Shown piece after piece: positions 6,040-29,070 of a DNA stretch of 35,327 nt (position 1 is its first letter; every line of letters starts with the position of its first letter). The translations under genes and the position numbers were made by a program. The stretch comes from a virus (taxonomy: Duplodnaviria > Heunggongvirae > Uroviricota > Caudoviricetes): the IMG/VR virus record IMGVR_UViG_2563366875_000005; one strand, written 5' to 3'. The notes under the pieces are model-generated. The model searched no databases. It saw only the letters and a program-made list of their open reading frames with translations, and was not told where the DNA came from.

Positions 6040-6459
6040 TCGTGTTTCCGCTTCGCCGGAGCGCCTTTTCGCGCCATGTGATGAGTTCGGTCAGACTCAT
6101 GGGATACAGTTCTGATGGCGGCCAGTGAAATATCACTGCCACATCCGCCATCAGGTCATCGACCGACAGATTTTTCGGAAACGTCACTGCACCGAGTTCG
6201 GCAACAAAAAACCGACCACCTTACCGGCCAGCGCCACAAGGTCAGGCAGTTCCAGCGCGGCGACTTCCTGCTCGGTCAGCATCGGTGCCGTCATGCGCGG
6301 CAGCACTTTAATCAGTGCATCGACTTCGGAGTTCGCGACTGCAGCCAGACTGACACCGCGCAGCGTCCCGGCATTGGGTTTCATCAGCGTGACCTGTTCG
6401 ATAACCTGCTCACCACGTTTGACCGGATTGTCCAGGGTAATGACGTTTTCTTTGTTCAT
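6032..6459 (-). CDS. E': Tail assembly chaperone E+E' (-1 programmed frameshift product)
   Basis: Slippery heptamer TTTTTTG on the minus strand (plus 6205-6211) within codons GGT TTT TTG near the E 3' end. I translated the -1 frame by hand: it continues VAELGAVTFPKNLSVDDLMADV...REKALRRSGNTNE and stops at TAA (plus 6032-6034), overlapping the T start. This gives about 142 aa total, as for P2 E+E'. Confidence 0.65.
6184..6459 (-). CDS. E: Tail assembly chaperone E
   Basis: 91 aa, MNKENVITLDNPVKRGEQVIEQ...; position between FII and T. Confidence 0.85.
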   Translation of the reverse strand: MNKENVITLDNPVKRGEQVIEQVTLMKPNAGTLRGVSLAAVANSEVDALIKVLPRMTAPMLTEQEVAALELPDLVALAGKVVGFLLPNSVQ

Positions 6460-6515
6460 GGTTTTCTCACTTCTGAATCGGGGTTAACCGGTCAGCCAGG
6501 CTGACCGGATGAAAA

Positions 6516-7034
6516 TCACAGGCCGATATTGCGGCGGTGTTGCTCCAGCCGGTCGACGCCGTTCACCTTCTCAATCATGTTGATGGTGTCGATTTCGACC
6601 AACTCCTTACCGTCCATCGTCAGCCGGAAATAGGTGCAGACCACGGAGATTTTCGACTCGGTGTCTTCTCCCTGTTTGCCCTCGCCGGTGTCGATTTCTT
6701 TCTGACGTCCACGCATGACCACCTCGACGGCCACCGTTTCGCCGGTATCGTCGCGCTGGTAAGAGCCTGCAAAACGAATCGGTACGGCATCCACACCGGT
6801 TGCGGCGTAAAGCTCCCAGATAACCGAATCCGGGAAGCCACCGAGCGACCACTCCATTGACAGCGCATCGTCATCAAGGCCGAGGTCTACCGGTGCGCTG
6901 CCGTTCATCCCCGCACCGCGATAGTTTTCGAGCTTACGGGTCAGTTTTGGCAGCGTGACGGACTTCGCGACGCCCTGATAGCTGTAGCCGTTCAGAAAGA
7001 CGTTCATTAACTTGAGTTTGCGCGGCATTGCCAT
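6516..7034 (-). CDS. FII: Tail tube protein (gpFII)
   Basis: 172 aa, immediately downstream of the sheath gene. Confidence 0.9.
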   Translation of the reverse strand: MAMPRKLKLMNVFLNGYSYQGVAKSVTLPKLTRKLENYRGAGMNGSAPVDLGLDDDALSMEWSLGGFPDSVIWELYAATGVDAVPIRFAGSYQRDDTGETVAVEVVMRGRQKEIDTGEGKQGEDTESKISVVCTYFRLTMDGKELVEIDTINMIEKVNGVDRLEQHRRNIGL

Positions 7035-7046
7035 CGGTCAGGCTCC

Positions 7047-8237
7047 TTAATTGCTGTTAACCGAGGTGACCAGATTTGCCAGGTATTTATCAGTAATACG
7101 CTGGCGCAGGGTCAGGTTTTCAAGAGGAGGCACCGGGGTATAGTCGTAGTCGATATACAGTTTTCCGGCCTTGAGGGTTTCCGCATCGTTGGATTCTTCG
7201 CTGAACCAGCAGGTCGCATCCACGATATAGCCGTTTGTTTTCAGCTCACGGAATTTGGCATTGATGCCGTCAACGATGTCGCGAATCAGCGTTGCGGTGA
7301 TGGGCTTGTCCACCGCCCACATGTGCGCCTCAGCCATCGTGTCGGCCAGCACCTGCGCGGTGCGGGTGTAGTTTTCAAAGAGGAACAGCGGGTCATCAGA
7401 GCAGGTACGGTTACCCCAGAAGCGAAAACCGTCGCGGCGAATCAGCGTTGTGACGCCTGACTCGTTAAGCAGGTCAGCATCGGTGCCGGACTCCTGCAAA
7501 TCCCAGAATACAGAGGCGCTGATGCCGGTAACACCGTTCACCCCGACATTGGACAGCGTTTTATGCCAGCCCTGCTCCTGGTCGATTTTAGCGCGCAGCC
7601 CCAGCGCACGGGCGGTGGCATACGCGGTGGCGGTGGTACTGGTGACCGTATCCCATGCGAGGAAATCCGGCCAGATGACCATCAGCTCACGCTGGCTGAA
7701 ATTCTGACGGTAGGCTTTCACCTCGGAAATGGTTTTACAGCCCCATGCGCTGATATACCCGAAAGCGCGCAACTTCTGACAGACTGATGCCAGTGCAACA
7801 GCCACCTCTTTGGTGTCCAGTCCCGGCACGCCGAGAATACGCGGTTTAACACCGGTTACCGACTCCGCCGCCAGCAGGGCTTTCAGTCCGGTGTACTGAC
7901 CGTTTTCGTCGGTGGTGCCGATGATATTGGAAACGGTCTGCGCGAGTTTCGTTTCCTCGTCGTCGCCGGTGCCGTCTTCCACACGCACGACAACGGTGAC
8001 CGGTTTTGACTGGTCGGCGATGGCCTGCAACGATGCCGCCAGCGTGCCTTTTTTACCGGCCTTTGCAATTGCGCTCTGCACATTGGTAATCAGCACCGGT
8101 TTATTGAGGGGGAAGGTTTCCGCATCCGCATCGCTGGCCGTGCAGACCATGCCGACAATGGCAGTGGATACGGTGGAAATGACGCGGGTGCCGTCGTTAA
8201 TCTCCAGCACCTGCACGCCGTGATGATAGTCACTCAT
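7047..8237 (-). CDS. FI: Contractile tail sheath protein (gpFI)
   Basis: 396 aa, MSDYHHGVQVLEINDGTRVIS..., the length and N-terminus of P2 FI from memory. Confidence 0.9.
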   Translation of the reverse strand: MSDYHHGVQVLEINDGTRVISTVSTAIVGMVCTASDADAETFPLNKPVLITNVQSAIAKAGKKGTLAASLQAIADQSKPVTVVVRVEDGTGDDEETKLAQTVSNIIGTTDENGQYTGLKALLAAESVTGVKPRILGVPGLDTKEVAVALASVCQKLRAFGYISAWGCKTISEVKAYRQNFSQRELMVIWPDFLAWDTVTSTTATAYATARALGLRAKIDQEQGWHKTLSNVGVNGVTGISASVFWDLQESGTDADLLNESGVTTLIRRDGFRFWGNRTCSDDPLFLFENYTRTAQVLADTMAEAHMWAVDKPITATLIRDIVDGINAKFRELKTNGYIVDATCWFSEESNDAETLKAGKLYIDYDYTPVPPLENLTLRQRITDKYLANLVTSVNSN

Positions 8238-8330
8238 CCGTTTAACTCCGTGGTTAATGGGTGCAACTATTTTCTGTTGTGCAGAGCATGAGACGCTATT
8301 TGACCTGGCTGGTCAGTGGATGAAACAACA

Positions 8331-8360
8331 GATAAAGAAAAGGCGGGCAATCAGCCCGCC
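8331..8360 (-). terminator. Terminator-like hairpin at the backbone/cargo boundary
   Basis: ggcgggc-aatca-gcccgcc (8342-8360) preceded on the plus strand by aaagaaaa, giving a T-rich tract after the hairpin on the minus strand. Confidence 0.45.
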
Positions 8361-8595
8361 TGTCCTGACTTGCATTCACTCATTTTCCAACTGACGGTTT
8401 ACATAGCCCAAACGTTATCAAATCTGACAGCCTGCTTTGAGCGAACAGCAGAATTTCACAACTGTCATCGCCATTGAGGATGCTCAGCTAACCTTTTACA
8501 TGTTAATCGACAGGGAGCACCTCAGCACCACATGCCACTTAACAGGTTTACTCATTGATTTTTATATGAAAAAACCTTGCTTTCAATAGCACGCC

Positions 8596-8623
8596 TTGAT
8601 TTCTATCGCTGTAATGTTAGAAT
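8596..8623 (+). promoter_or_regulatory. Putative sigma70 promoter for the cargo operon
   Basis: TTGATT (8596-8601), 16-bp spacer, TAGAAT (8618-8623), about 28 bp upstream of the ATG at 8651. By-eye match only. Confidence 0.3.
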
Positions 8624-8650
8624 GTAAAAAAACTCATTTATACAGCATTT

Positions 8651-9031
8651 ATGGATAATATATCTCTTGATTACTTCCCTGTTATAATATTGGTTTTAGC
8701 TTTTTTTATGAAAGTTTCTATAGGTAGAGGTTTTGCCTTAAGTAATTATGGAGTTGGTTTATTAGAACTACCTGTTGACCTATTTTTTGTTTCAATTTCA
8801 ATATTTGCCACAACTATTCTTACTCATTCCGATAATATCCAGCAAAAAATTCAAACCCTAATTATATATTTAATATTTACTGTAGTGTCAGCAATTCTTT
8901 GGCGTTTCAATGAGACCCTATTCTTATCACAAACAAAGAAAAGATGGTGGTGCGCTCTTTTGATCCCTGCAAACATAATAATTGCATTTTATTTCTTTAT
9001 GATCACAATTGATTTGGTGAAGCAACAATGA
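8651..9031 (+). CDS. Small multi-pass membrane protein (cargo gene 1)
   Basis: 126 aa with about four hydrophobic helices (YFPVIILVLAFFM, LPVDLFFVSISIFATTIL, IQTLIIYLIFTVVSAILW, WWCALLIPANIIIAFYFFMITIDLV); very AT-rich; stop overlaps the next start (ATGA at 9028-9031); no obvious Shine-Dalgarno. Confidence 0.7.
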   Translation: MDNISLDYFPVIILVLAFFMKVSIGRGFALSNYGVGLLELPVDLFFVSISIFATTILTHSDNIQQKIQTLIIYLIFTVVSAILWRFNETLFLSQTKKRWWCALLIPANIIIAFYFFMITIDLVKQQ

Positions 9032-9756
9032 ATATCATTCGAGAATTTACCTCTAATTTGAATGGCGAGTTTTTCGCAATTATGTTTGCTATATTTTCTT
9101 TATTGTGTGTAATAATATCTCTTTTATTACTCAAAAAAAGAGAGACCATTTACAATGAAAAACTAAATAGAATTGAACTTGATTTTATGCGTTCAAATTA
9201 TGAAAATAAGATTTATGAATTAAATGAAAAGTTAACTTTTGAAAAGAAAAGATGGTTAGATAATAATCATTTTTTCGCAAATATGCCTAATGACGATCGG
9301 AAGATAGGTGCAATCAATCAAGCGATCAATCCACATTTTTTTCTAGAGAACATGGGGTTAAACCCTGATGCATTGAACATTAAACCAAAGAGTGTATTTA
9401 TCCTCACTCCATTTAATGATAGGTATCTTAATGATTACAAAGCTATTGAACAGGCTTGTATCAACATTGGTATATCTGTTTCTCGTGGAGATGAAGAACG
9501 CATAAATGGTGATATCTTATCCTATATAGTTTCTCAAATTTGTTCATCTCAATTGATTATCGCTAATATTTCTGGTAGAAATCCTAATGTTTTCTATGAA
9601 CTAGGTATTGCCCAGGCATTAGGAAAGCCGGCCATAATAGTCAGTAAAGGTGCAAAGGATATACCTTTCGACTTAAAAAATAGACAGGTTTTCATTTACG
9701 AGAGTTTATCTGATTTAACATCAAAAATCCAGAAAGCCGTTGTGAGTCTTCTTTAA
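9028..9756 (+). CDS. Membrane-anchored protein with C-terminal NDT/TIR-like (SLOG-fold) domain (cargo gene 2)
   Basis: 242 aa; N-terminal TM helix (FFAIMFAIFSLLCVIISLLLL) followed by KKRE; charged helical linker; the C-terminal ~120 aa carry VFILTPFND and LIIANISGRNPNVFYELGIAQALGKPAIIV, resembling the catalytic-Glu motif of nucleoside 2-deoxyribosyltransferase-like / TIR-like domains. The candidate Glu is E191 (codon 9598-9600). Confidence 0.75.
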   Translation: MNIIREFTSNLNGEFFAIMFAIFSLLCVIISLLLLKKRETIYNEKLNRIELDFMRSNYENKIYELNEKLTFEKKRWLDNNHFFANMPNDDRKIGAINQAINPHFFLENMGLNPDALNIKPKSVFILTPFNDRYLNDYKAIEQACINIGISVSRGDEERINGDILSYIVSQICSSQLIIANISGRNPNVFYELGIAQALGKPAIIVSKGAKDIPFDLKNRQVFIYESLSDLTSKIQKAVVSLL

Positions 9757-9885
9757 TTCATAGTTCTGTATTTCCCCTCAGGGCGGCAATGTCGTCCTGA
9801 GTAGTCCAGCGAAAGAATTGTCAGCATTGTCTCATATTAGTCATATACCATTATTACTGCTATTTAGTTTCTGAACCACTTATAA

Positions 9886-9903
9886 CTAGAAATATATTTC
9901 TAG
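9886..9903. repeat. 18-bp perfect palindrome ctagaaatatatttctag
   Basis: Read directly; it is its own reverse complement. Lies inside the 724-bp ORF-free gap between cargo genes. Confidence 0.85.
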
Positions 9904-10231
9904 CATCCCATTACCCATCGCATACCATTATTAAAATTCTATAAGTCCTTTATCCGAAGGGCGGCTTTATATATACAGACGCTTTGCATGGATACAGACT
10001 CGCGAAGAATTCCTTAGTTATATGTCCGTTGCAGTTCAAGTATAATCGTGAACCACCGTCTACGTAGATAGCCATAATCTCCCCTTCAAAAGATACCAGC
10101 AACGAGTTAGTCGAAAAAGATATCTCAAATCGGCGGATAAGGGGCTCTCACCAGACTGAATGAGCCTCCTAAAAAACCGGGGATGATAGTAACTATTATG
10201 TAGGCTTATCCGTAGCGATTAATTTGCTACT

Positions 10232-10259
10232 AATGCCCGCTGCTGGCACAGAGCAGACC
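10232..10259. repeat. GC-rich hairpin element, copy 1
   Basis: aatgcccgctgctggcacagagcagacc shares the core ctggcacagagc with copy 3. Confidence 0.6.
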
Positions 10260-10273
10260 ATCGGACTGAACTG

Positions 10274-10304
10274 AATGTCCGCTCTGAGCGAGGAGCGGAA
10301 GTCC
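10274..10304. repeat. GC-rich hairpin element, copy 2
   Basis: aatgtccgctctgagcgaggagcggaagtcc; 7-bp stem tccgctc/gagcgga; shares aatgtccgct with copy 3. Confidence 0.6.
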
Positions 10305-10417
10305 ATAATCATTCCCACCTTTGGCAAGAGCAATACTAATTTCTGATGGGATAGGATAATTAATAGACAACTGGCTAGTCGGAAATGCAGAGTTTTAACT
10401 TATATCGCATGTATACA

Positions 10418-10445
10418 TTGACCATTTTTAAATCGATAGTAACAT
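10418..10445 (+). promoter_or_regulatory. Putative sigma70 promoter for cargo gene 3
   Basis: TTGACC (10418-10423), 16-bp spacer, TAACAT (10440-10445); AGGAA RBS at 10471-10475 before the ATG at 10481. Confidence 0.35.
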
Positions 10446-10480
10446 CTTTCAAGACAATTGAGTATATATAAGGAATAAGA

Positions 10481-11239
10481 ATGAGCTTGCACCCTGAAAT
10501 ACTATTTCATTTTACAGATAAAGACGGGTTGTTAAATATACTTGAACACACATTTAAAATATCATACGCGAGAGAAAGGATACAAGGTAAGAATGAAATA
10601 AGAGAATTTGGTATTCCTATGGTTTCTTTTTGTGATATCAAACTTTCCGATCTAAAGGATCATATTGATAAGTATAGGGATTATGGCATTGGGTTAAATA
10701 AAGCATGGGCAAATTCAAAAGGACTCAATCCAGTTTGGTATGTAAGTAAAAATAGCGAATTCCCCGATGCATTTACCTCTGCATTAAACTCTTTATATCG
10801 AAAAATGGATTCTATATTGGACAATAAAGAGTATAAAGAATTTAATGAAACTTACATGAAATTCATGGATATATATAGATATCTTAAAAATTACGAGGGG
10901 GAACTAAAAAGATCCAAAGAAGTAATTAAAAACTATAGATTTGCGGATGAAAAAGAATGGAGATTCGTTCCAAGTATCAGCGAAGAAGATATATTACCAT
11001 TCGTACCTATTACTAAAATAAAAACAAAAAACCAGAAAGCGGAATATAATAATCAGATCAGTCATCTTCGCTTGAGCTTTGAGCCAAAAGATATAAAGTA
11101 TATCATTGTCAAAGATGAACATGATATTATTGATATTGTTAATCATCTTAAAATGGTTAAAAGTAGATTCTCTTCTCTTGATATAACACAACTACAAACG
11201 CGCATATTGACTACTGAGCAAATAAAAACTGACATGTGA
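10481..11239 (+). CDS. Hypothetical soluble cargo protein (cargo gene 3), possible Abi-like single-gene defence or exclusion protein
   Basis: 252 aa, no TM segments, Lys/Glu/Tyr/Asn-rich, very AT-rich with its own promoter and RBS; N-terminus MSLHPEILFHFTDKDGLLNILEH. I could not place it in a family from sequence alone. Confidence 0.75.
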   Translation: MSLHPEILFHFTDKDGLLNILEHTFKISYARERIQGKNEIREFGIPMVSFCDIKLSDLKDHIDKYRDYGIGLNKAWANSKGLNPVWYVSKNSEFPDAFTSALNSLYRKMDSILDNKEYKEFNETYMKFMDIYRYLKNYEGELKRSKEVIKNYRFADEKEWRFVPSISEEDILPFVPITKIKTKNQKAEYNNQISHLRLSFEPKDIKYIIVKDEHDIIDIVNHLKMVKSRFSSLDITQLQTRILTTEQIKTDM

Positions 11240-11285
11240 TGATATTATTAACTATTCAAAGGTTAATAATACAACCAGCGGTATC

Positions 11286-11316
11286 AATGTCCGCTTCTGG
11301 CACAGAGCGGACTGTC
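11286..11316. repeat. GC-rich hairpin element, copy 3
   Basis: aatgtccgcttctggcacagagcggactgtc; 7-bp stem gtccgct/agcggac with a 10-nt loop; 47 bp after the gene 3 stop and 58 bp before the G stop on the other strand. Confidence 0.6.
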
Positions 11317-11373
11317 AGATTAGGCTTTACTCTGTGCCATAGATATGTAAGCTCACACCAGAGATCATACAAC

Positions 11374-11901
11374 TTATTGCGGCATTTCCGGCCATTCGGG
11401 ATTTGCAGGATCCACACGACTGACCAGAACGCTGTAGCGTTCCCATGCTTCCAGTCGGCTGCGTTCCTCATCCGTCGCCATATTCAGCCTGACAGCGCGT
11501 TCCAGCGGCAAAATCACGGATTCAGCTTCGGAAAGTAAAGCTGCCTTTTGTGATTCTGCCAGTTGCTGCTGTTCATCTGCCGTATAAATCCGCTTAATCA
11601 CGGCACCATCCTTAAACATCCATTTACCTGAGTCATCAGCACGTCGGTTGGCGGTAATATCAGGAACCTCGACAACGCTAAAACCTTCAGGGTTAAGCGT
11701 TGAAACATCTCTGGTGATGCCGACAATTATATTATTCTCGTCGTAAACAATCTTTATCGTGTCTTCCTGAAAATTACTTACTTCCTCATACCAGTTTTTT
11801 CCGTCTTCAGACCATAACCAGATAACATCAAAATTTTTTGTCAGTTGATATTGGGCAACAGTTTTGGGATTACCCGCAGTAATATTTTTTAAATGCTGCA
11901 T
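11374..11901 (-). CDS. G: Tail fiber assembly chaperone (gpG)
   Basis: 175 aa, immediately downstream of the tail fiber gene; N-terminus [20 protein letters not shown]. Confidence 0.85.
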
Positions 11902-11904
11902 AAA

Positions 11905-13863
11905 TTACACCTGTGCGACGTTATACCATGTGCCATTAATGTATTTTTGTATTGGTCTGAATACTGCCGGATCATCGCCATCAACTTCGCCGACAATGCC
12001 AAGTCCTGTAATTGCATGCCCTGCTTTCTCATACATCACGCCTTTTTGCATGGTCTGAACAACACGCGTACCCAGGCGAATATCTTTCACATAGCGGGAA
12101 TCAAAATTTCCGTAATCTGATGGGTTAACACGTCCAGTAACATTTAATCCATGCCCAATTGAAACAGCACCATTGGCGTTGTTAATAGTAAGTGGTCTTA
12201 AATTATTCCATGAGCCAAATCTGTCACCAGATGCAGTCAGCATAAAATAAGTATCTTTGCCGTCATTTCTGATAAAGAAACCATAATTGCCATAAGCAAC
12301 GCGCAGACCATTAGCACTGAGCGATGTAATTTCACCTCTTGAACGAAGACCATAAGCAGAGCTGAGTGATAATTCTTCCTGAGCATCAGTATTACCTGTC
12401 GCCCAGCGAATTACCCCGCCCTGTACTGTTTCATGCCAGATAGTGTCTCCTTCTCCACCACGAAACTTTCTGAGATATTTTTTGCCGCCTCTGGTGCCTG
12501 AACATAAGGCCGTAGACATATAGGCATTCTGGCTTCCGCCATCCTGATTAATCGTTCCGGTCATTGCGTCGCCCTGACGATTCCAGTCACGACGCCAGCC
12601 GGGGGAGTAGCCGTCCCCATGATTTATGTAAGTGAATTGCGCGCTGGTTGTACCGCCACCGCTTGATGTTGTTGGCGTGGTCACTCGGATAGTGATTGCA
12701 GATTTAGTTCCCATGACCTCGACGACACAACCAGCCAGGTGGATATCACCACATCCGGTATCCGTAATGATTTTGTTATTTGCATATGACCAGGAGCCTT
12801 TGCACATCCAGTACGGATGATTAAATGCACCACGGGAATCCAGCCATTCAATAAACTGAGCGGTTGTCCAGTTTCCGGCTTCAGTGCTCAAAGCGCCGCT
12901 ATAAGCACGACAGGCACCGATATTTTTCGTGAAGGTATCCTTTCCCGGAATATCCGCACCGTTCTGATCTTTCTGAAGACGTTTTTCAGCATTGTCATAG
13001 GCAGACTTCACTGCTTTTGGCGTTGCCGCGAGGGTTTCAGAATCACTGTTGGTGGCGCTACTGAGCTGGACAAGACCTTTTCGCGCCGTGGTGGCATCCT
13101 GTGCAGTGTATTTCCCGTTAGCAAGGTCATACGCTGTCTTAACCGCCTTTGGCGTTGCCGCAAGCGTTTCAGACGTGCTGTTGGTGGCACTACTGAGCTG
13201 GACAAGACCTTTTCGCGCTGTGGTAGCGTCCTGTGCGGTATATTTCCCGTTAGCAAGGTCATAGGCGGCCTTAACCGCTTTCGGCGTTGCGGCCAGTGTT
13301 TCAGACGTGCTGTTGGTCGCATTGCTTAACTGAGTAAAACCTTTTGCAGTCAGTGAGGCGTCCGGGTGGCGTCGTGACTGTTCGTGTTCTGCAATTTTGT
13401 CATCAACGTAATCCTGCGTCGCCATCACCGTTGTGGTGTCAATGGTCAGCGCCACTGAGGCCACACTGCTGACGATGATGACCATGCGGCAGGTCTGCGA
13501 ACGCCCTGAGCCTTCGGCAAGAGCGGGTTTATAACTTTCGGCCATGTTCGCCACGGCAATTAACGTTCCCGCATCATCGTACAGGCCAAGCTCACGCATC
13601 CAGAAACCGCCCACCTCCGGCGGAATAACCAGCTCTGCGATAATATAATTACTGTTTCGTTTGTCCTGGCTGATTTTGTTCAGCGCATGTCGCCAGACTT
13701 CATGGATAAGCCCGGTCTGTCCGGCATCCGGGACAGGCAATTTACCACCACCATCCCCGACGGCCATCGTGGTAATGTTGACCTTCCGCCCTCCCGGTGC
13801 GGTTGCTGCTGCCAGCTTTGCTGCACCGGCAGTGGTGATAACGGTTCTGAATTTTGTGCTCAT
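11905..13863 (-). CDS. H: Tail fiber protein (gpH)
   Basis: 652 aa; N-terminus MSTKFRTVITTAGAAKLAAATAPGG; contains tandem 44-aa repeats; position between I and G. Confidence 0.85.
   Translation of the reverse strand: MSTKFRTVITTAGAAKLAAATAPGGRKVNITTMAVGDGGGKLPVPDAGQTGLIHEVWRHALNKISQDKRNSNYIIAELVIPPEVGGFWMRELGLYDDAGTLIAVANMAESYKPALAEGSGRSQTCRMVIIVSSVASVALTIDTTTVMATQDYVDDKIAEHEQSRRHPDASLTAKGFTQLSNATNSTSETLAATPKAVKAAYDLANGKYTAQDATTARKGLVQLSSATNSTSETLAATPKAVKTAYDLANGKYTAQDATTARKGLVQLSSATNSDSETLAATPKAVKSAYDNAEKRLQKDQNGADIPGKDTFTKNIGACRAYSGALSTEAGNWTTAQFIEWLDSRGAFNHPYWMCKGSWSYANNKIITDTGCGDIHLAGCVVEVMGTKSAITIRVTTPTTSSGGGTTSAQFTYINHGDGYSPGWRRDWNRQGDAMTGTINQDGGSQNAYMSTALCSGTRGGKKYLRKFRGGEGDTIWHETVQGGVIRWATGNTDAQEELSLSSAYGLRSRGEITSLSANGLRVAYGNYGFFIRNDGKDTYFMLTASGDRFGSWNNLRPLTINNANGAVSIGHGLNVTGRVNPSDYGNFDSRYVKDIRLGTRVVQTMQKGVMYEKAGHAITGLGIVGEVDGDDPAVFRPIQKYINGTWYNVAQV
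12975..13345 (-). repeat. Tandem 132-bp (44-codon) repeats inside tail fiber gene H, about 2.8 copies
   Basis: Units begin near 13016, 13148 and 13280; they encode repeated SATNSTSETLAATPKAVK.AYDLANGKYTAQDATTARKGLVQLS. Confidence 0.7.
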
Positions 13864-25852: not shown

Positions 25853-28800
25853 TTACAATGTTGGAGCATCAATCAGACACTTATCTCGCTCCACCTTTAG
25901 TGCCAAAAAACTCAGTCTGATTGATAAATATTTCATATCATCACCTCCTCCACTGATATCAAACTGTTGCTCATTCAACTCCTTAGCATATTCTAACTCT
26001 TTATCATAAGATGAGGTTACACGCCAAATTACAGAACCACGCTTAAATAAGTAGTATAAGCCATTAACATCCCGATACGCTTTCATAAGCTGCCATAACA
26101 CATCGGTACATCTGTTAAAAAGCTCATCTAATCGCTGCAAGAACAAATAATCATAAACGGCCTTTAATTCCCTCACCCCCTCCGCATCAATTTTTTCAAA
26201 CTCTCCGCAACGTACCAACTCTTCATACTTAACAAGTAACGCCCTGGCCTTAGTATACACTCCCCCTTCATTTTTTATGGCATTATCAATGTATTTGAAA
26301 GATGAACCAGAAAACAAATAATGAAGTTTAATGCTAATATTATTAGCCAGCGTGTTATACCCAGCAGCTCGGGACTTTTTCTCGAGAGAAATAAGCTTAT
26401 TAACCCTTTTACCATGAGACAATTCGTCAGCCAAATGAACTTCAGCATTGATATAATAACTAGAAGACTTTGGAGCTATCTTTTTTAATTTTATTGCGTA
26501 TTTTCGTGCTTTTTCATCATTATATTCAGAGCATGCCATCATAATATTATCAAGCATTTTAAAATAATATTCCTTTTGACAAAACTCTTTTGCCTCGAAC
26601 TCATCACTTAAAGGCTCAATAAATTCAACACTTTGTTCAACCTCATCAATCATTCTTAAACTTGTAGCCAAAAAATACGCAGCCCTAAATTTATCAAGAA
26701 TATCCAAATGAGAAATATTAGAATAAAGCATCCGAGAAAATGCGACGAGTTCTTTATAGTAACATGCACTCTTTAAAAAGATGCAATATCCTATAGAAAC
26801 ATGTATTAATGATTTAACTTCTCGATCATAATGATTAATATCTATTAATGAAAAGTATGAACTAATAGCTGAATGGACATTTCCAGGATAAAACTCCGGG
26901 CTTTCAAGCATCATCTTCACTGTAGGAGAGACTCTCACTTTCCCTGACATCCAATCGCTACCGATACAAAGTCCTAGGGATTTTTTTACAAGTTCATACC
27001 GTTGGTTAGGATCCATACCCTGCTTTACAAAATCACTAACAACTGGTGATATCCTTAATATTTTATAATTATCCTTTGTAATTGTATAAATCAGACCATA
27101 TCTTTCTAGTTTTGCGAAATCATCAAAATGAAAATCATACGATGAATAATAAGAGCGAATATTTGTCAATTTCTCCCCATATTCAAGCATAGAGAAAATG
27201 CATAGTAATGAATATAGTTTTCTATTATCACTTCTAATCTCGTTTATTTGCTTGGATATGTAGTGTGGAATGTCCGTATTTGTTCCCTCTGCCGAAACAA
27301 CAATATTTCCTGCATCAAGGACTTCATCAAATGACATTAACTCATAATACTCTTTAACCTTATCTAATTTTAAAGGTATTCCATTTGTTATTTCATACAA
27401 CCTATCAAGTTTCTCTCTTTTTATTTCAGTAATATCAGTGCCAACTTTAATATACTCCTTTATATCATCTAAAGATAAAGGCTGTAATTCCACTATACCA
27501 GAGCATATCCCGTTACATGTCGCTGATACAAAAATAACTTTCACACCAGAACTAAGATCTGATGATAATTTCGCAATCTCAGAAAAGAAAGCTTTAGTTG
27601 ATGGAGGAAGTCTGGCTATGTTATCAAGAATTAAAATCCGCTTTCCTAATCCATTATTAGATATGAAGGTTGCAATATCGATACCGATATCCTGTTTTAT
27701 TTTAACTTCAATATCATGAGATTCAGTCAATCCATTGACATCACTATAATAACATGTAAAATCATAAAATTCATCATGAATAAAAGAATATAAAAAACCT
27801 GCTTTTCCGTATCCCCAACCAGAAACAAGCTCAAAATGATTGTTATTATTTAAATAATCAGTGGCTTTTTTTTGCTCTACTAATCTAATTATATCATGCG
27901 CAGGCTCAACTGAAAGGTTATAGGGTCTCAGCGAAATAACTATGCTTTCTGTTATCGGCTGTAATCCAGTTTTTTTTACAACAAACTTACTTAATTGTTT
28001 TTTTTTACTAATCTCAGCCAAAGCATCTTCAAAGTATGTATTACAGTCAACCCCAACATATCCTTGAAAACGAGCATTAACAAGCGCTGGTTGAATAATT
28101 TCAATCAATCGTGAATGTTCTTTACTCACATCATCAATTGAGTTTTTATAAAAACCCCATCTAACATTATAACTTGGCTGAAACTCATGGACGATGTTTC
28201 TTAACGCCTGTAGAAAAACATCATCCCAACCTGCATATCCAATAACATATAATTTACTTGTATCCAATATATTTTTTATTGACAACTCAATTTTTTTCCT
28301 CAATGAAGAAAGCTGAGTTTGAGTATGCATAGTATCTCCATCCCAAACTCCATGTAAATGCACTACGGGAATGGATTCGCCTGAATAGCTGGTAACGCTA
28401 CCAATTGGTTGATCTACAATAAGATTATGTACATTACAATTTCTATTTACTCTAAACAATGCCTCTTCAATCAATGGATCAAAATTTGTTGTAAGTATGC
28501 ATTTTACTTTAATGCTAGTTTCTGAAATAAGCCTTGAAAAATCATCAAGTGATTTAGTAATTAACCATTTGTCGCCGCTCCTTGCATTATTCATTGCAAG
28601 AGCCATTATTTCTTTAACTTCATCTTGATCACCTACCTTCAAAAGGTATTCGAAACTTTTTTGATATTTATCAGTTTCACTTAAACCGATTATGTTACTT
28701 TCAAAGCCATCATAAATATCTAAATCAATCATATATTGCCGCAGAATATCATTCATCCCTGAAACGCCCGGTACCCCATTCCCCTCCGGCGAGCAACTCA

Positions 28801-28888
28801 CGGCTGACCCCAGAAGAAAACTAACGTCTTTACCTTTCCGAATATCCAATACCAAAGACTTTACAAATTCAGTATAAGAATTAAACAT
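25853..28888 (-). CDS. Large SIR2-domain defence protein (DSR2-like defence-associated sirtuin)
   Basis: About 1011 aa from the ATG at 28888 (AGGGA RBS); N-terminal SIR2 motifs FLLGSAVS, ILTTNFD and VVHLHG, then about 700 aa of mostly helical sequence; very AT-rich. The track ORF starts at 28981, but the 31-residue extension looks non-native. Confidence 0.8.
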   Translation of the reverse strand: MFNSYTEFVKSLVLDIRKGKDVSFLLGSAVSCSPEGNGVPGVSGMNDILRQYMIDLDIYDGFESNIIGLSETDKYQKSFEYLLKVGDQDEVKEIMALAMNNARSGDKWLITKSLDDFSRLISETSIKVKCILTTNFDPLIEEALFRVNRNCNVHNLIVDQPIGSVTSYSGESIPVVHLHGVWDGDTMHTQTQLSSLRKKIELSIKNILDTSKLYVIGYAGWDDVFLQALRNIVHEFQPSYNVRWGFYKNSIDDVSKEHSRLIEIIQPALVNARFQGYVGVDCNTYFEDALAEISKKKQLSKFVVKKTGLQPITESIVISLRPYNLSVEPAHDIIRLVEQKKATDYLNNNNHFELVSGWGYGKAGFLYSFIHDEFYDFTCYYSDVNGLTESHDIEVKIKQDIGIDIATFISNNGLGKRILILDNIARLPPSTKAFFSEIAKLSSDLSSGVKVIFVSATCNGICSGIVELQPLSLDDIKEYIKVGTDITEIKREKLDRLYEITNGIPLKLDKVKEYYELMSFDEVLDAGNIVVSAEGTNTDIPHYISKQINEIRSDNRKLYSLLCIFSMLEYGEKLTNIRSYYSSYDFHFDDFAKLERYGLIYTITKDNYKILRISPVVSDFVKQGMDPNQRYELVKKSLGLCIGSDWMSGKVRVSPTVKMMLESPEFYPGNVHSAISSYFSLIDINHYDREVKSLIHVSIGYCIFLKSACYYKELVAFSRMLYSNISHLDILDKFRAAYFLATSLRMIDEVEQSVEFIEPLSDEFEAKEFCQKEYYFKMLDNIMMACSEYNDEKARKYAIKLKKIAPKSSSYYINAEVHLADELSHGKRVNKLISLEKKSRAAGYNTLANNISIKLHYLFSGSSFKYIDNAIKNEGGVYTKARALLVKYEELVRCGEFEKIDAEGVRELKAVYDYLFLQRLDELFNRCTDVLWQLMKAYRDVNGLYYLFKRGSVIWRVTSSYDKELEYAKELNEQQFDISGGGDDMKYLSIRLSFLALKVERDKCLIDAPTL

Positions 28889-29070
28889 TAAGCAATCCCT
28901 TTCGTTATATGACGAAACTACAAGCAGAGAATTTCTGATAATTTTTACATTATGAAACCAAAGCATCAACACATAATACAAAACAAAAGTAACTTATTGA
29001 TTTGTATATAATTTCCATTATAAGTCTACACGTAATGCTACAGGAGCATTTTGAAGACCACTCCCCGCTT

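Follow-up and report, generated by a model that had tools for sequence, protein, structure and literature searches.

Small membrane proteins that accompany a second protein acting at the membrane are found in RexAB and Kiwa, two-gene systems of exclusion or defence borne by prophages or islands, where the four-transmembrane (four-TM) partner is RexB and KwaA, respectively. In enzymes of the NDT/DNPH1 type, the glutamate of the (Y/F)ELG helix acts as the nucleophile. The active-site tyrosine on strand 1 of NDT and DNPH1 forms a hydrogen bond to this glutamate and has been linked to 2'-deoxy specificity, whereas TIR NADases usually carry Phe or Ala at this beta1 position (PMC11204291). The NDT-like effector of the retron Ec86 requires both its catalytic glutamate and dimerisation, and its substrate is disputed, with adenine derivatives given in one report and NAD+ in another (PMC13276650). 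Thoeris types V-XI are two-gene operons encoding a TIR enzyme and an effector; some of these effectors are small and membrane-spanning, and in their predicted oligomers the signal is bound by cytoplasmic pockets of positive charge, while ThsI, the effector of type VIII, is a CMP-hydrolase domain (10.64898/2025.12.03.692087). As cargo of a P2-like phage, the Rst_2TM_1TM_TIR system (AC1) comprises three genes with a separate TIR protein, is located in the old/tin hotspot and was validated against lambda, LF82_P8 and P2 (PMC9122126).

Here, a window of 35,327 nucleotides, i.e., the whole stretch of viral DNA under analysis, was studied with respect to two adjacent genes, gene 1 and gene 2, carried by a P2-like prophage of E. 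coli. Most likely, the pair is an unnamed anti-phage system, its role in defence being inferred from context only.

Locus organization and position in the Z/fun hotspot

ORF calling placed both genes exactly where a preliminary description of this DNA had put them (Table 1), including the ATGA at 9028-9031 in which the gene 2 start codon overlaps the gene 1 stop codon, and a GGTGA Shine-Dalgarno-like element is present 8 nt 5' of the gene 2 ATG. The same description had pointed out that the pair is more AT-rich than the phage backbone, which is borne out by the GC contents of gene 1 (0.30), gene 2 (0.31) and the sheath gene (0.57). Since dN/dS relative to a Morganella copy is low (gene 1, 0.08; gene 2, 0.15), a search at E<=1e-3 retrieved 984 homologues of gene 2 and the exact protein sequences are recorded in 89 E. 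coli contigs, both ORFs are real genes rather than chance reading frames. A consensus scan detected a candidate promoter with an extended -10 element 28 nt before the gene 1 ATG, in a region where promoter-like sites are no commoner than in shuffled sequence.

The slot of the pair between FI and G is the P2 Z/fun position, as had been suggested before; the profiles of the flanking genes and the points at which homology to the P2-EC67 Z-region (AJ512685) breaks are in agreement. The backbone homology to the latter stops at 8452 and restarts at 11290, and because these breaks fall at the annotated repeats, the cargo lies inside the Z-region inverted repeats and hence in Z/fun. When compared by megablast with 5,426 complete E. 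coli genomes and a phage collection, the flanks alone matched (about 10% of the query), and other genomes carry differing genes between these flanks; in other P2-like phages, conservation is likewise confined to the flanks. ORF calls, Pfam and PADLOC identified gene 1, gene 2 and a gene for an AbiGi-family protein, and nothing further, as cargo between FI and G. AbiGi, the third AT-rich cargo gene of the hotspot, had been overlooked in the preliminary description, as had the palindromic repeats that divide the hotspot.

These repeats bound two cassettes, the second of which carries AbiGi. R1 and R3 are 71% identical in direct orientation, and R4 is inverted with respect to R1; in AJ512685, the annotated 'right inverted repeat' has its inner end at R1 and the 'left inverted repeat' at R4. 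R3 contains a 7-bp hairpin (z = -2.7) and R4 a hairpin fold (z = -3.25). The 1.8-kb module formed by the promoter region, both genes and a non-coding tail shares 99.2% identity with a locus (L104) of a lambdoid E. coli prophage and 92.9% with a locus (L007) on the Morganella chromosome, with coinciding end points in both; Z/fun and a lambdoid prophage thus harbour one and the same module. AbiGi was considered as a third component of the system and rejected, since the pair has no AbiGi neighbour at the lambdoid, Morganella, Klebsiella or any of the distant loci, i.e., AbiGi is missing from every other context, and since AbiGi has its own repeat-bounded cassette. A functional element in the 489-nt tail was likewise rejected: the tail has diverged in a neutral-like manner from the Morganella copy (88% identity, about the synonymous rate), its 50-aa minus-strand ORF is broken in Morganella, and it gave no match in Rfam or in E. 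coli genomes. The repeat-bounded tandem cassettes suggest a cassette-exchange mechanism that could be exploited to search Z/fun, a less explored second hotspot of P2-like phages, systematically for further cargo.

Table 1. Features of the gene pair and its surroundings, given as positions in the window.
Feature	Position	Strand	Basis
Sheath FI, flanking gene	7047..8237	-	Phage_sheath_1 9.8e-34
Repeat R1, left boundary of cassette 1	8421..8461	.	Repeat comparison
1.8-kb mobile module: promoter region, gene pair and 489-nt tail	8435..10245	+	Shared block
Candidate promoter TTGATT, 16 nt, TG-TAGAAT	8596..8623	+	Consensus scan
Gene 1, four-TM membrane protein, 126 aa	8651..9031	+	ORF call, hydropathy, AF2, 23-partner alignment
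ELPVD motif, gene 1	8765..8779	+	Predicted cytoplasmic start of TM2
Gene 2, predicted membrane-anchored NDT/TIR-class enzyme, 242 aa	9028..9756	+	Profile, fold and conservation analyses
Gene 2 TM helix, residues 14-35, then KKR	9067..9132	+	Hydropathy
Juxtamembrane helical region, gene 2 residues 36-84	9133..9279	+	AF2 helix, conservation
NDT/TIR-like domain, gene 2 residues 118-242	9379..9753	+	Fold searches, PF05014, PADLOC, conservation
E191 codon (GAA), predicted catalytic nucleophile	9598..9600	+	Codon read directly in sequence
Non-coding tail of module	9757..10245	+	Comparison with Morganella copy
Repeats R2 (10232-10265) and R3 (10266-10308), back to back, cassette junction	10232..10308	.	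Repeat comparison
AbiGi-family protein, 252 aa, neighbouring cassette	10481..11239	+	Pfam AbiGi 2.8e-31, PADLOC AbiGi 1.4e-47
Repeat R4, right boundary of cassette 2	11286..11323	.	Repeat comparison
Tail fibre assembly G, flanking gene	11374..11901	-	Caudo_TAP 8e-35

Gene 2 and its NDT/TIR-like domain

The architecture proposed for gene 2 in the preliminary description, namely one N-terminal TM helix and a C-terminal domain, was recovered: besides the TM helix listed in Table 1, the AF2 model has a continuous helix over residues 3-71 (pLDDT 90-95) and an alpha/beta domain over residues 122-241. By the positive-inside rule, the C-terminal domain is predicted to be cytoplasmic. Residues Y42, R55, E59, R75, W76, N80, H81 and L82 are invariant or nearly so among the homologues.

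Fold searches with the C-terminal Rossmann-like domain retrieved the CMP hydrolase MilB, NDTs, DNPH1/Rcl and TIR domains as the nearest folds, in line with the NDT/TIR-like character first ascribed to it from its motifs. The best structural match was a CMP hydrolase, and the fold as a whole is equally close to TIR domains and to NDTs. The domain displays the features of the NDT/DrHyd-TIR-SLOG superfamily, i.e., a three-layer alpha/beta arrangement with five parallel strands, in which the predicted catalytic acidic residue opens the helix after strand 3. In Pfam, gene 2 scored below the gathering threshold of PF05014 Nuc_deoxyrib_tr (19.1 vs 28.8 bits, E 0.0014, residues 163-211 only), and for this reason its substrate is not readable from family membership; 104 of the 108 homologues match PF05014 at E<=0.01 (best 2e-7). 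No TIR family was detected for gene 2 in Pfam at E<=1. Its sole PADLOC match was the CBASS 'Effector/TIR' model (PDLC00733; 5.4e-9), a match limited to about 67 residues surrounding the catalytic helix; this model is matched by all 108 homologues (best E 2e-14). The PADLOC models for ThsB and PycTIR were not matched by gene 2, NCBIfam yielded nothing useful for the pair, and in PHROGs only a weak NDT match and families without an assigned function were retrieved. In other proteins, the NVFYELG domain is fused to TIR_2, DUF4062, TPR and CHAT. The full-length family amounts to about 800 clusters at 50% identity and occurs in Proteobacteria, Firmicutes and Bacteroidota.

Three motifs characterise the domain, VF124ILTPF, R153-G-D155-E and GRNPNVFYE191LG. 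The conservation of E191, which had been named as the likely catalytic residue, was confirmed: it is invariant (108/108 homologues), and its counterpart in Rcl/DNPH1 is the YELG glutamate (GVGYELG in Rcl), as seen when the family profile NVFYELGIAxALGKP is set against Rcl GVGYELGRAVALGKP. Gene 2 shares with NDT and DNPH1 the conserved glutamate in a (Y/F)ELG helix. Moreover, R153, D155, N187, Y190, K200 and D215 are invariant in the 108 homologues, and F124 is kept in 107 of them. According to our own motif alignment, F124 would occupy the beta1 position of NDT Tyr7; since NDT/DNPH1 have Tyr and TIR NADases usually Phe or Ala there, this residue may point to a ribo substrate, e.g., NAD+.

Gene 1 and its pairing with gene 2

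The suggestion that gene 1 encodes about four TM helices is supported by four hydrophobic segments in the hydropathy profile and by AF2, which models the protein as four long helices (pLDDT 73). This model gave no significant fold match (best E 1.1). Pfam and PADLOC assign gene 1 to no family, DUF2270 and SLATT are not matched, and the 23 gene-1-like partners of gene 2 homologues were likewise without a PADLOC match. Alignment of these 23 proteins revealed conservation of P10, K21, R26, L-P41-x-D43 and W84-R85. Within the ELPVD motif, conservation reaches at least 90% for both P41 (23 aligned proteins) and D43 (19 paired sequences), and the conservation of the motif residues spans Proteobacteria, Firmicutes and Bacteroidota.

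Pairing was counted in 24 full-length gene 2 loci from species-representative genomes, the partners at L024 and L032 being found on inspection. A gene-1-like multi-TM ORF lies directly upstream of every TM-anchored full-length gene 2 homologue (23/23), with a gap of -41 to +11 nt, and the single homologue that has no TM helix (1/24 loci) also has no gene-1-like ORF. The order gene 1-gene 2 is the same in the Klebsiella, Morganella, Vibrio, Bacillus, Pseudomonas, Pseudoalteromonas, Lysinibacillus and Erythrobacter loci; the pair is conserved as a unit across bacterial phyla.

The surroundings of these loci belong to the accessory genome. The Vibrio homologue is a superintegron cassette and the Lysinibacillus pair a prophage moron, while the Bacillus pair is set among SIR2_2, putAbiC, FRG and RES genes, the Pseudomonas pair is part of an integrase island that also carries nSTAND, Fic and ParE, and the Morganella pair adjoins a RelA_SpoT pair. 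Neighbours in the representative genomes include AbiU, PDC-M30, PDC-M41, PDC-S15, a TIR effector and a retron RT; in a raw tally over 20 species-representative loci, many neighbours were housekeeping genes (tRNA synthetases, transporters) and a minority defence genes.

Proposed function and alternative explanations

Taken together, we propose with moderate confidence that the pair is a self-contained, horizontally mobile module that is embedded in the membrane and acts against phages by abortive infection or exclusion, its N-glycosidase effector being controlled by gene 1. Gene 2 would be the effector, inserted into the inner membrane by its one TM helix in such a way that the N-terminus is outside and the catalytic domain faces the cytoplasm; its long conserved helix probably oligomerises the protein, and its domain would act as an NDT/TIR-class N-glycosidase with E191 as nucleophile. 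Gene 1, the synthesis of which would be stoichiometrically coupled to that of gene 2, may touch the TM/juxtamembrane region of the latter and serve as the sensor or regulator that keeps the enzyme inactive until infection. Following membrane perturbation or the arrival of a phage protein at the membrane as trigger, the activated gene 2 protein would cut the N-glycosidic bond of NAD+, adenine or other nucleotides, and the loss of nucleotides or NAD+ would starve phage replication or arrest the cell. The computed data fit either partner as sensor or killer.

A bolder form of this proposal, possible at best, sees in the pair a new family-level immune system: the fast-evolving gene 1 would sense a phage event and switch on gene 2 via the juxtamembrane helix, the substrate would be a nucleotide or deoxynucleotide and not NAD+, and the repeats would mediate cassette exchange. 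The sensed event at the inner membrane could then be, e.g., genome injection or the insertion of a holin or pinholin, and the 1.8-kb cassette could move among P2-like phages, lambdoid phages and chromosomes.

The roles of the two proteins might also be reversed in a Thoeris-like manner, gene 2 making a signal derived from NAD+ or other nucleotides upon infection and gene 1 forming an oligomeric pore opened by this signal. A precedent for a TIR enzyme acting with a small membrane effector is provided by Thoeris V-XI (10.64898/2025.12.03.692087), and the same signal-pore logic was proposed by Rousset et al. for the TIR and TM proteins of AC1 (PMC9122126). In line with such a mechanism, the conserved basic residues K21, R26 and R85 of gene 1 lie on predicted cytoplasmic loops and would suit a ThsF-like signal-binding pore equally well, and the gene 2 fold is as near to TIR domains as to NDTs. 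We nevertheless consider this explanation unlikely: the only PADLOC match of gene 2 is a CBASS effector model, with Pfam TIR families, ThsB and PycTIR all unmatched, its best structural match is a CMP hydrolase, a domain class that serves as effector and not as signal maker in type VIII, tethering the maker of a diffusible signal to the membrane has no obvious purpose, and gene 1 is neither a DUF2270 nor a SLATT protein.

Less probable still is a toxin-antitoxin or addiction module, in which gene 2 would be a toxin degrading nucleotides or NAD+ and gene 1 its constitutive neutraliser, with stability of the mobile element as the main role and any effect on phages secondary. The tight translational coupling of the two genes, the location of the pair in a Vibrio superintegron, integrative islands and prophages, where toxin-antitoxin modules are common, and ParDE, RelB/ParE and Hok neighbours at several loci are consistent with this explanation. 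However, neither partner has evident features of a labile antitoxin, both being integral membrane proteins in an ordinary stability class, and the gene order together with the link between gene 1 and the TM anchor fits a structural complex equally well; furthermore, an addiction module overlaps with defence by abortive infection and does not oppose it. Finally, a function outside conflict, as an accessory for lysogenic conversion or housekeeping, such as a membrane-associated enzyme that salvages or modifies nucleotides or nucleosides and has a small membrane protein as subunit, would agree with the metabolic roles of the characterised NDT, DNPH1 and MilB/BcmB enzymes, the many housekeeping neighbours in representative genomes and the original annotation of P2 Z-region genes as 'putative lysogenic conversion' proteins, but is very improbable in view of the patchy, horizontally transferred and AT-rich nature of the pair, its occurrence in morons, integron cassettes and defence islands, the failure to find it in 5,426 complete E. 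coli genomes, and the relation of gene 2 to a CBASS effector model and the fusions of its domain with CHAT, TIR_2 and DUF4062.

If validated, the gene 1-controlled anti-phage module proposed here would be a widespread two-gene addition to the bacterial immune repertoire and, with about 370 residues, a compact model for the coupling of a membrane event to a nucleotide-cleaving enzyme of the TIR/NDT class. It could then also help to explain how effectors of this class are silenced and triggered.

Comparison with known systems

No matching named system was found in PADLOC 2.0.0 for the two proteins, the 108 gene 2 homologues or the 23 gene 1 partners, and none of the publications consulted, among them Rousset 2022, DefenseFinder, a DrHyd survey, DefensePredictor, an integron cassette screen, work on retron Ec86 and a survey of TIR systems, describes a TM plus NDT/TIR pair matching this one, which is in accordance with the earlier view of the pair as a candidate undescribed module. 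As to the TM plus TIR modules of P2 hotspots to which a loose likeness had been remarked on, AC1 is also cargo of a P2-like phage and also combines TM proteins with a TIR-class enzyme; however, it consists of three genes in old/tin, whereas here two genes, with the enzyme fused to a TM helix, are located in Z/fun. Identity with AC1 ('2TM-1TM-TIR') was therefore rejected by description, gene number and hotspot being different.

With Thoeris types V-XI the pair has in common the two-gene operon of a TIR-class Rossmann-like enzyme and a small multi-TM protein, as well as the occurrence in defence islands and prophages, and type VIII likewise employs a CMP-hydrolase/NDT-type domain as immune effector. 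In contrast to Thoeris, the enzyme itself is membrane-anchored here and has no Pfam TIR, PADLOC ThsB or PycTIR match, gene 1 is not a DUF2270 (ThsF) or SLATT protein, and the pair is without the separate canonical TIR gene that a ThsI-like reading would call for; a ThsI-like candidate at L052 has IS copies on its flanks and no TIR neighbour and is therefore uninformative.

An NDT-fold effector with a catalytic glutamate is also found in Retron-Eco1 (Ec86), where it is active as a dimer, kept inactive by partner components and causes abortive infection through depletion of adenine derivatives or NAD+. Unlike the retron, the pair has neither a reverse transcriptase nor msr/msd RNA: no RT ORF was found between FI and G, and no retron RNA was detected in Rfam at E<=1. 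Control would be exerted by a membrane protein and not by msDNA, and gene 2 possesses a TM anchor and not the C-lobe of the retron effector. The pair also differs from CBASS (PDLC00733, Cap12 TIR-STING) by having no CD-NTase and no STING or SAVED signal-binding domain, and the finding that no cyclase is present in its cargo or in the homologous loci places it outside CBASS.

The resemblance to RexAB and Kiwa is one of functional analogy only, as no sequence or fold relationship was detected and the effector chemistry differs. The fold and the (Y/F)ELG helix with its catalytic glutamate are shared with NDT, DNPH1/Rcl and MilB/BcmB, which are soluble, metabolic enzymes with 11-21% identity to gene 2. 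As compared to these enzymes, gene 2 appears from the motif alignment to carry F124 in place of the active-site tyrosine, and it adds a TM anchor, a conserved helical region and an obligatory membrane partner.

Genetic organization of the cargo region

Both open reading frames lie exactly where the preliminary description had placed them, between the sheath gene FI and the tail-fibre assembly gene G, which is the Z/fun position of P2. The overlap that it noted was confirmed: nucleotides 9028-9031 read ATGA, with the start codon of gene 2 overlapping the stop codon of gene 1; a Shine-Dalgarno-like GGTGA is located 8 nt 5' of this start. The pair is also more AT-rich than the backbone, with a GC content of 0.30 for gene 1 and 0.31 for gene 2 vs 0.57 in the neighbouring sheath gene. 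The suggested variable cargo hotspot holds, since only the two ends of 8238-11373 (about 10% of the query) matched in a megablast search of 5,426 complete E. coli genomes and INPHARED phages, and many different genes were found between the same ends in other genomes. Both are genuine genes, with dN/dS values of 0.08 (gene 1) and 0.15 (gene 2) relative to the Morganella copy. Records from 89 E. coli contigs contain the exact proteins, in each case under the label 'hypothetical protein'. The minus strand bears a strong terminator-like hairpin (8 bp, seven of them G-C, with a T-run) at 8341-8361, just 5' of FI, and late transcription from G would traverse the entire cargo antisense before meeting it.

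Features of the cargo region and modelled elements of the gene 2 protein
Feature	Position	Strand	Remarks
Sheath FI, P2-type	7047..8237	-	flanks cargo
R1	8421-8461		direct repeat with R3
Module	8435-10245		216 nt upstream sequence, gene 1, gene 2, 489-nt tail
Gene 1	8651..9031	+	126 aa, ORF call
Gene 2	9028..9756	+	242 aa, ORF call
R2	10232-10265		direct repeat with R4
R3	10266-10308		hairpin fold z = -2.7
AbiGi-family gene	10481-11239	+	GC 0.31; Pfam 2.8e-31, PADLOC 1.4e-47
R4	11286-11323		hairpin fold z = -3.25
Tail-fibre assembly protein G	11374..11901	-	flanks cargo; fibre gene H further out
Gene 2, continuous helix (AF2)	residues 3-71		TM segment and long stalk
Gene 2, two short helices (AF2)			
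Gene 2, low-confidence loop (AF2)	residues 85-92		pLDDT <50
Gene 2, five-stranded alpha/beta domain (AF2)	residues 122-241		

The cargo is punctuated by four copies (R1 to R4) of a palindromic element of about 35 nt, overlooked in the preliminary description. The R1/R3 set is inverted relative to the R2/R4 set, and R1 and R2 are degenerate. The annotation of the P2-EC67 Z-region (AJ512685) includes a 'right' and a 'left inverted repeat', whose inner ends are R1 and R4, respectively; backbone homology to this record ends at 8452 and picks up again at 11290. The repeats and these break points thus delimit two tandem cassettes, one holding gene 1 and gene 2 and the other the AbiGi-family gene, which is independent of the pair and has no AbiGii partner. 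Elsewhere in the prophage, a 1042-aa AT-rich ORF (25853-28981, minus strand, GC 0.31-0.35) is located between the head/terminase genes and gpA, i.e., in the P2 old/tin hotspot; its residues 157-336 are SIR2-like (PADLOC pAgo-associated SIR2 models, 1e-15; PDC-S65, 7e-9), so that a second candidate for an NAD+-linked defence gene is present in this prophage.

Mobility and genomic settings

Within E. coli, the identical proteins are encoded both in the P2-like Z/fun hotspot, with AbiGi, and in a lambdoid (Rac/DicB-type) prophage, without it. The DNA common to Z/fun, the lambdoid prophage and the Morganella chromosome has identical end points each time, which defines the unit as a 1.8-kb module. 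In the lambdoid prophage and the Morganella chromosome, its breakpoints lie within the palindromic repeats, which suggests that these are a cassette-exchange site. The tail of the module (9757-10245) travels into all three contexts and is 88% identical to Morganella, a neutral-like divergence at about the synonymous rate; no conserved ORF and no known RNA was found in it, and a 50-aa minus-strand ORF within it is disrupted in the Morganella copy. The tail could be what is left of a decayed gene that once lay next to the pair. In the lambdoid loci among the matches listed (L104 and L106, about 6361-12600), the pair is flanked on one side by an AAA_15/AAA_21 ATPase plus 211-aa pair and on the other by HNH, DUF2513 and DUF2971 genes, and this site looks like another prophage defence hotspot.

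In Vibrio hepatarius (L009/L018, 4635-5723), the pair forms a single two-gene superintegron cassette, adjoining infC-rpmI-rplT and a few cassettes away from the integron integrase. It is found in an island with SIR2_2, putAbiC, FRG, RES and DUF2971 genes in Bacillus cereus, in an integrase island with nSTAND, Fic and ParE/RelB in Pseudomonas, as a moron on the opposite strand in a Lysinibacillus prophage, beside a CAP12-type TIR-TPR protein in Bacteroidota, and beside icd and a RelA_SpoT-like pair in Morganella. The latter (Morganella morganii locus L007, 9669-10806, directly 3' of the pair) consists of genes for 118 aa and 259 aa with a weak RelA_SpoT match and could be a toxin-antitoxin pair of the toxSAS type or a defence pair.

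Conservation of the pair

In every locus examined via the contig index (Klebsiella and other Enterobacteriaceae, Morganella, Vibrio, Pseudomonas, Pseudoalteromonas, Bacillus, Lysinibacillus, Erythrobacter and a Bacteroidota MAG), a small multi-TM gene lies 5' of the gene 2 homologue, adjacent or overlapping; in the Bacteroidota MAG it is present although missed by the gene caller. A scan of GTDB for the motif PNV[FM]YELG, with one genome per species, retrieved at least 586 genomes, and 24 of the 80 best loci were full-length; a gene-1-like ORF stood directly upstream in all 23 with an N-terminal TM helix, and the sole soluble variant, from a cyanobacterium, was without one. Gene 1 and gene 2 are conserved as a unit. 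When 1.84 billion cluster representatives were searched with a profile, 812 clusters of roughly full-length architecture were obtained at E<=1e-30 and 17,882 with the domain in any architecture at E<=1e-10.

The two proteins

The approximately four TM helices expected for gene 1 agree with four hydrophobic segments in the hydropathy profile and four long helices in the AF2 model (pLDDT 73). No family match was obtained in Pfam, PADLOC or NCBIfam and no significant match in a fold search of the model, and sequence searches retrieved close relatives only. Positional partners from distant genomes still align with gene 1, sharing P10, K21, R26, L-P41-x-D43 at the start of TM2 and W84-R85 after TM3. 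Given the many basic residues in loops 1 and 3, the predicted orientation of these positions is cytoplasmic, the side on which the conserved juxtamembrane helix of gene 2 would be located.

For gene 2, the single N-terminal TM helix was recovered by hydropathy at residues 14-35; it is followed by KKR, and by the positive-inside rule the remainder would be cytoplasmic. The AF2 model was built from 108 homologues (mean pLDDT 82). The helical linker of the preliminary description is indeed a long helix, and it is no passive tether: Y42, R55, E59, R75, W76, N80, H81 and L82 show complete or near-complete conservation. The assignment of the C-terminal domain as NDT-like was upheld: gene 2 itself scores only 19.1 bits against PF05014, below the 28.8 threshold, but 104 of the 108 homologues match this family at E<=0.01, and the family profile aligns NVFYELGIAxALGKP to Rcl GVGYELGRAVALGKP. 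The putative catalytic E191 is invariant among the homologues, as are R55, R153, D155, N187, V188, Y190, L192, G193, K200 and D215; F124 and T127 are each retained in 107 of them.

The NVFYELG domain is modular. In soluble relatives (ORFs of loci L042, L044 and L052) it is fused to TIR_2, DUF4062 or TPR-like repeats, and in the full-length TM-anchored P0170 (447 aa) it is accompanied by a CHAT caspase-like domain at the C-terminus (1.5e-11 to 8tl0). C-terminal extensions of 250-300 aa also occur in other full-length members, e.g., P0171, P0227 and P0193, that of P0171 being without a PDB sequence match. The domain is also found in lysogeny modules of Streptococcus, Staphylococcus and Enterococcus prophages, many of which have relatives, in agreement with the published remark that a distinct version of TIR occurs in such phages (PMC9503650). 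SpyM3_0974 of Streptococcus prophage 315.2 (259 aa; L111, 2884-3663), with 41% identity over 87 aa, is encoded on the repressor strand of the lysogeny module, between a cro-like gene and the repressor and integrase genes.

Proposed mechanism

We propose, with about an even chance of being right, that gene 2 is the effector, a cytoplasm-facing NDT/TIR-class N-glycosidase that would probably be active only as an oligomer, and that gene 1 is a membrane partner that would sense infection or hold the enzyme in check. Precedents for this are known: the NDT-like effector of retron Ec86 requires its catalytic glutamate and dimerisation and reportedly depletes adenine derivatives or NAD+ (PMC13276650), and the effector of Thoeris type VIII is a CMP-hydrolase (10.64898/2025.12.03.692087). 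At the strand-1 position, NDT and DNPH1 have a tyrosine linked to 2'-deoxy specificity and TIR NADases Phe or Ala (PMC11204291). The near-invariant Phe of the gene 2 family, equivalent by our own motif alignment rather than by a structural one, would point to a ribo substrate, NAD+ for example.

The main rival is a reversed, Thoeris-like logic in which gene 2 would make a signal and gene 1 would be the pore; newly described operons of TIR and a small-TM effector (10.64898/2025.12.03.692087) and the basic residues on the predicted cytoplasmic loops of gene 1 speak for it, and we regard it as unlikely. A toxin-antitoxin or addiction role appears more doubtful, and a metabolic or lysogenic-conversion role outside conflict is slightly less probable still. 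Some neighbours in 20 species-representative loci are AbiU, PDC-M30, PDC-M41, PDC-S15, a TIR effector, a retron-type RT or integrases, and many others are housekeeping genes; this mixed, uncontrolled tally is circumstantial support for a defence role and not a statistic.

Comparison with known systems

TIR effectors are used by CBASS systems, and the C-terminal part of the PADLOC CBASS 'Effector/TIR' model was matched by all 108 gene 2 homologues (best E 2e-14). The pair falls outside several named systems, whose defining features it lacks: no cyclase accompanies it as in CBASS and no RT or ncRNA as in retrons, AC1 2TM-1TM-TIR of P2-like phage is described as three genes in the other hotspot, old/tin, and AbiGi, of AbiGi/AbiGii, occupies a separate cassette. 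The preliminary description could not confirm that it belongs to a named system; PADLOC 2.0.0 does not represent it as a system of its own, nor was a paper naming it found in the literature searched, a very recent or unindexed description being possible. A known effector fold class is used here in an architecture not described before, in which the enzyme is TM-anchored and has an obligatory four-TM partner.
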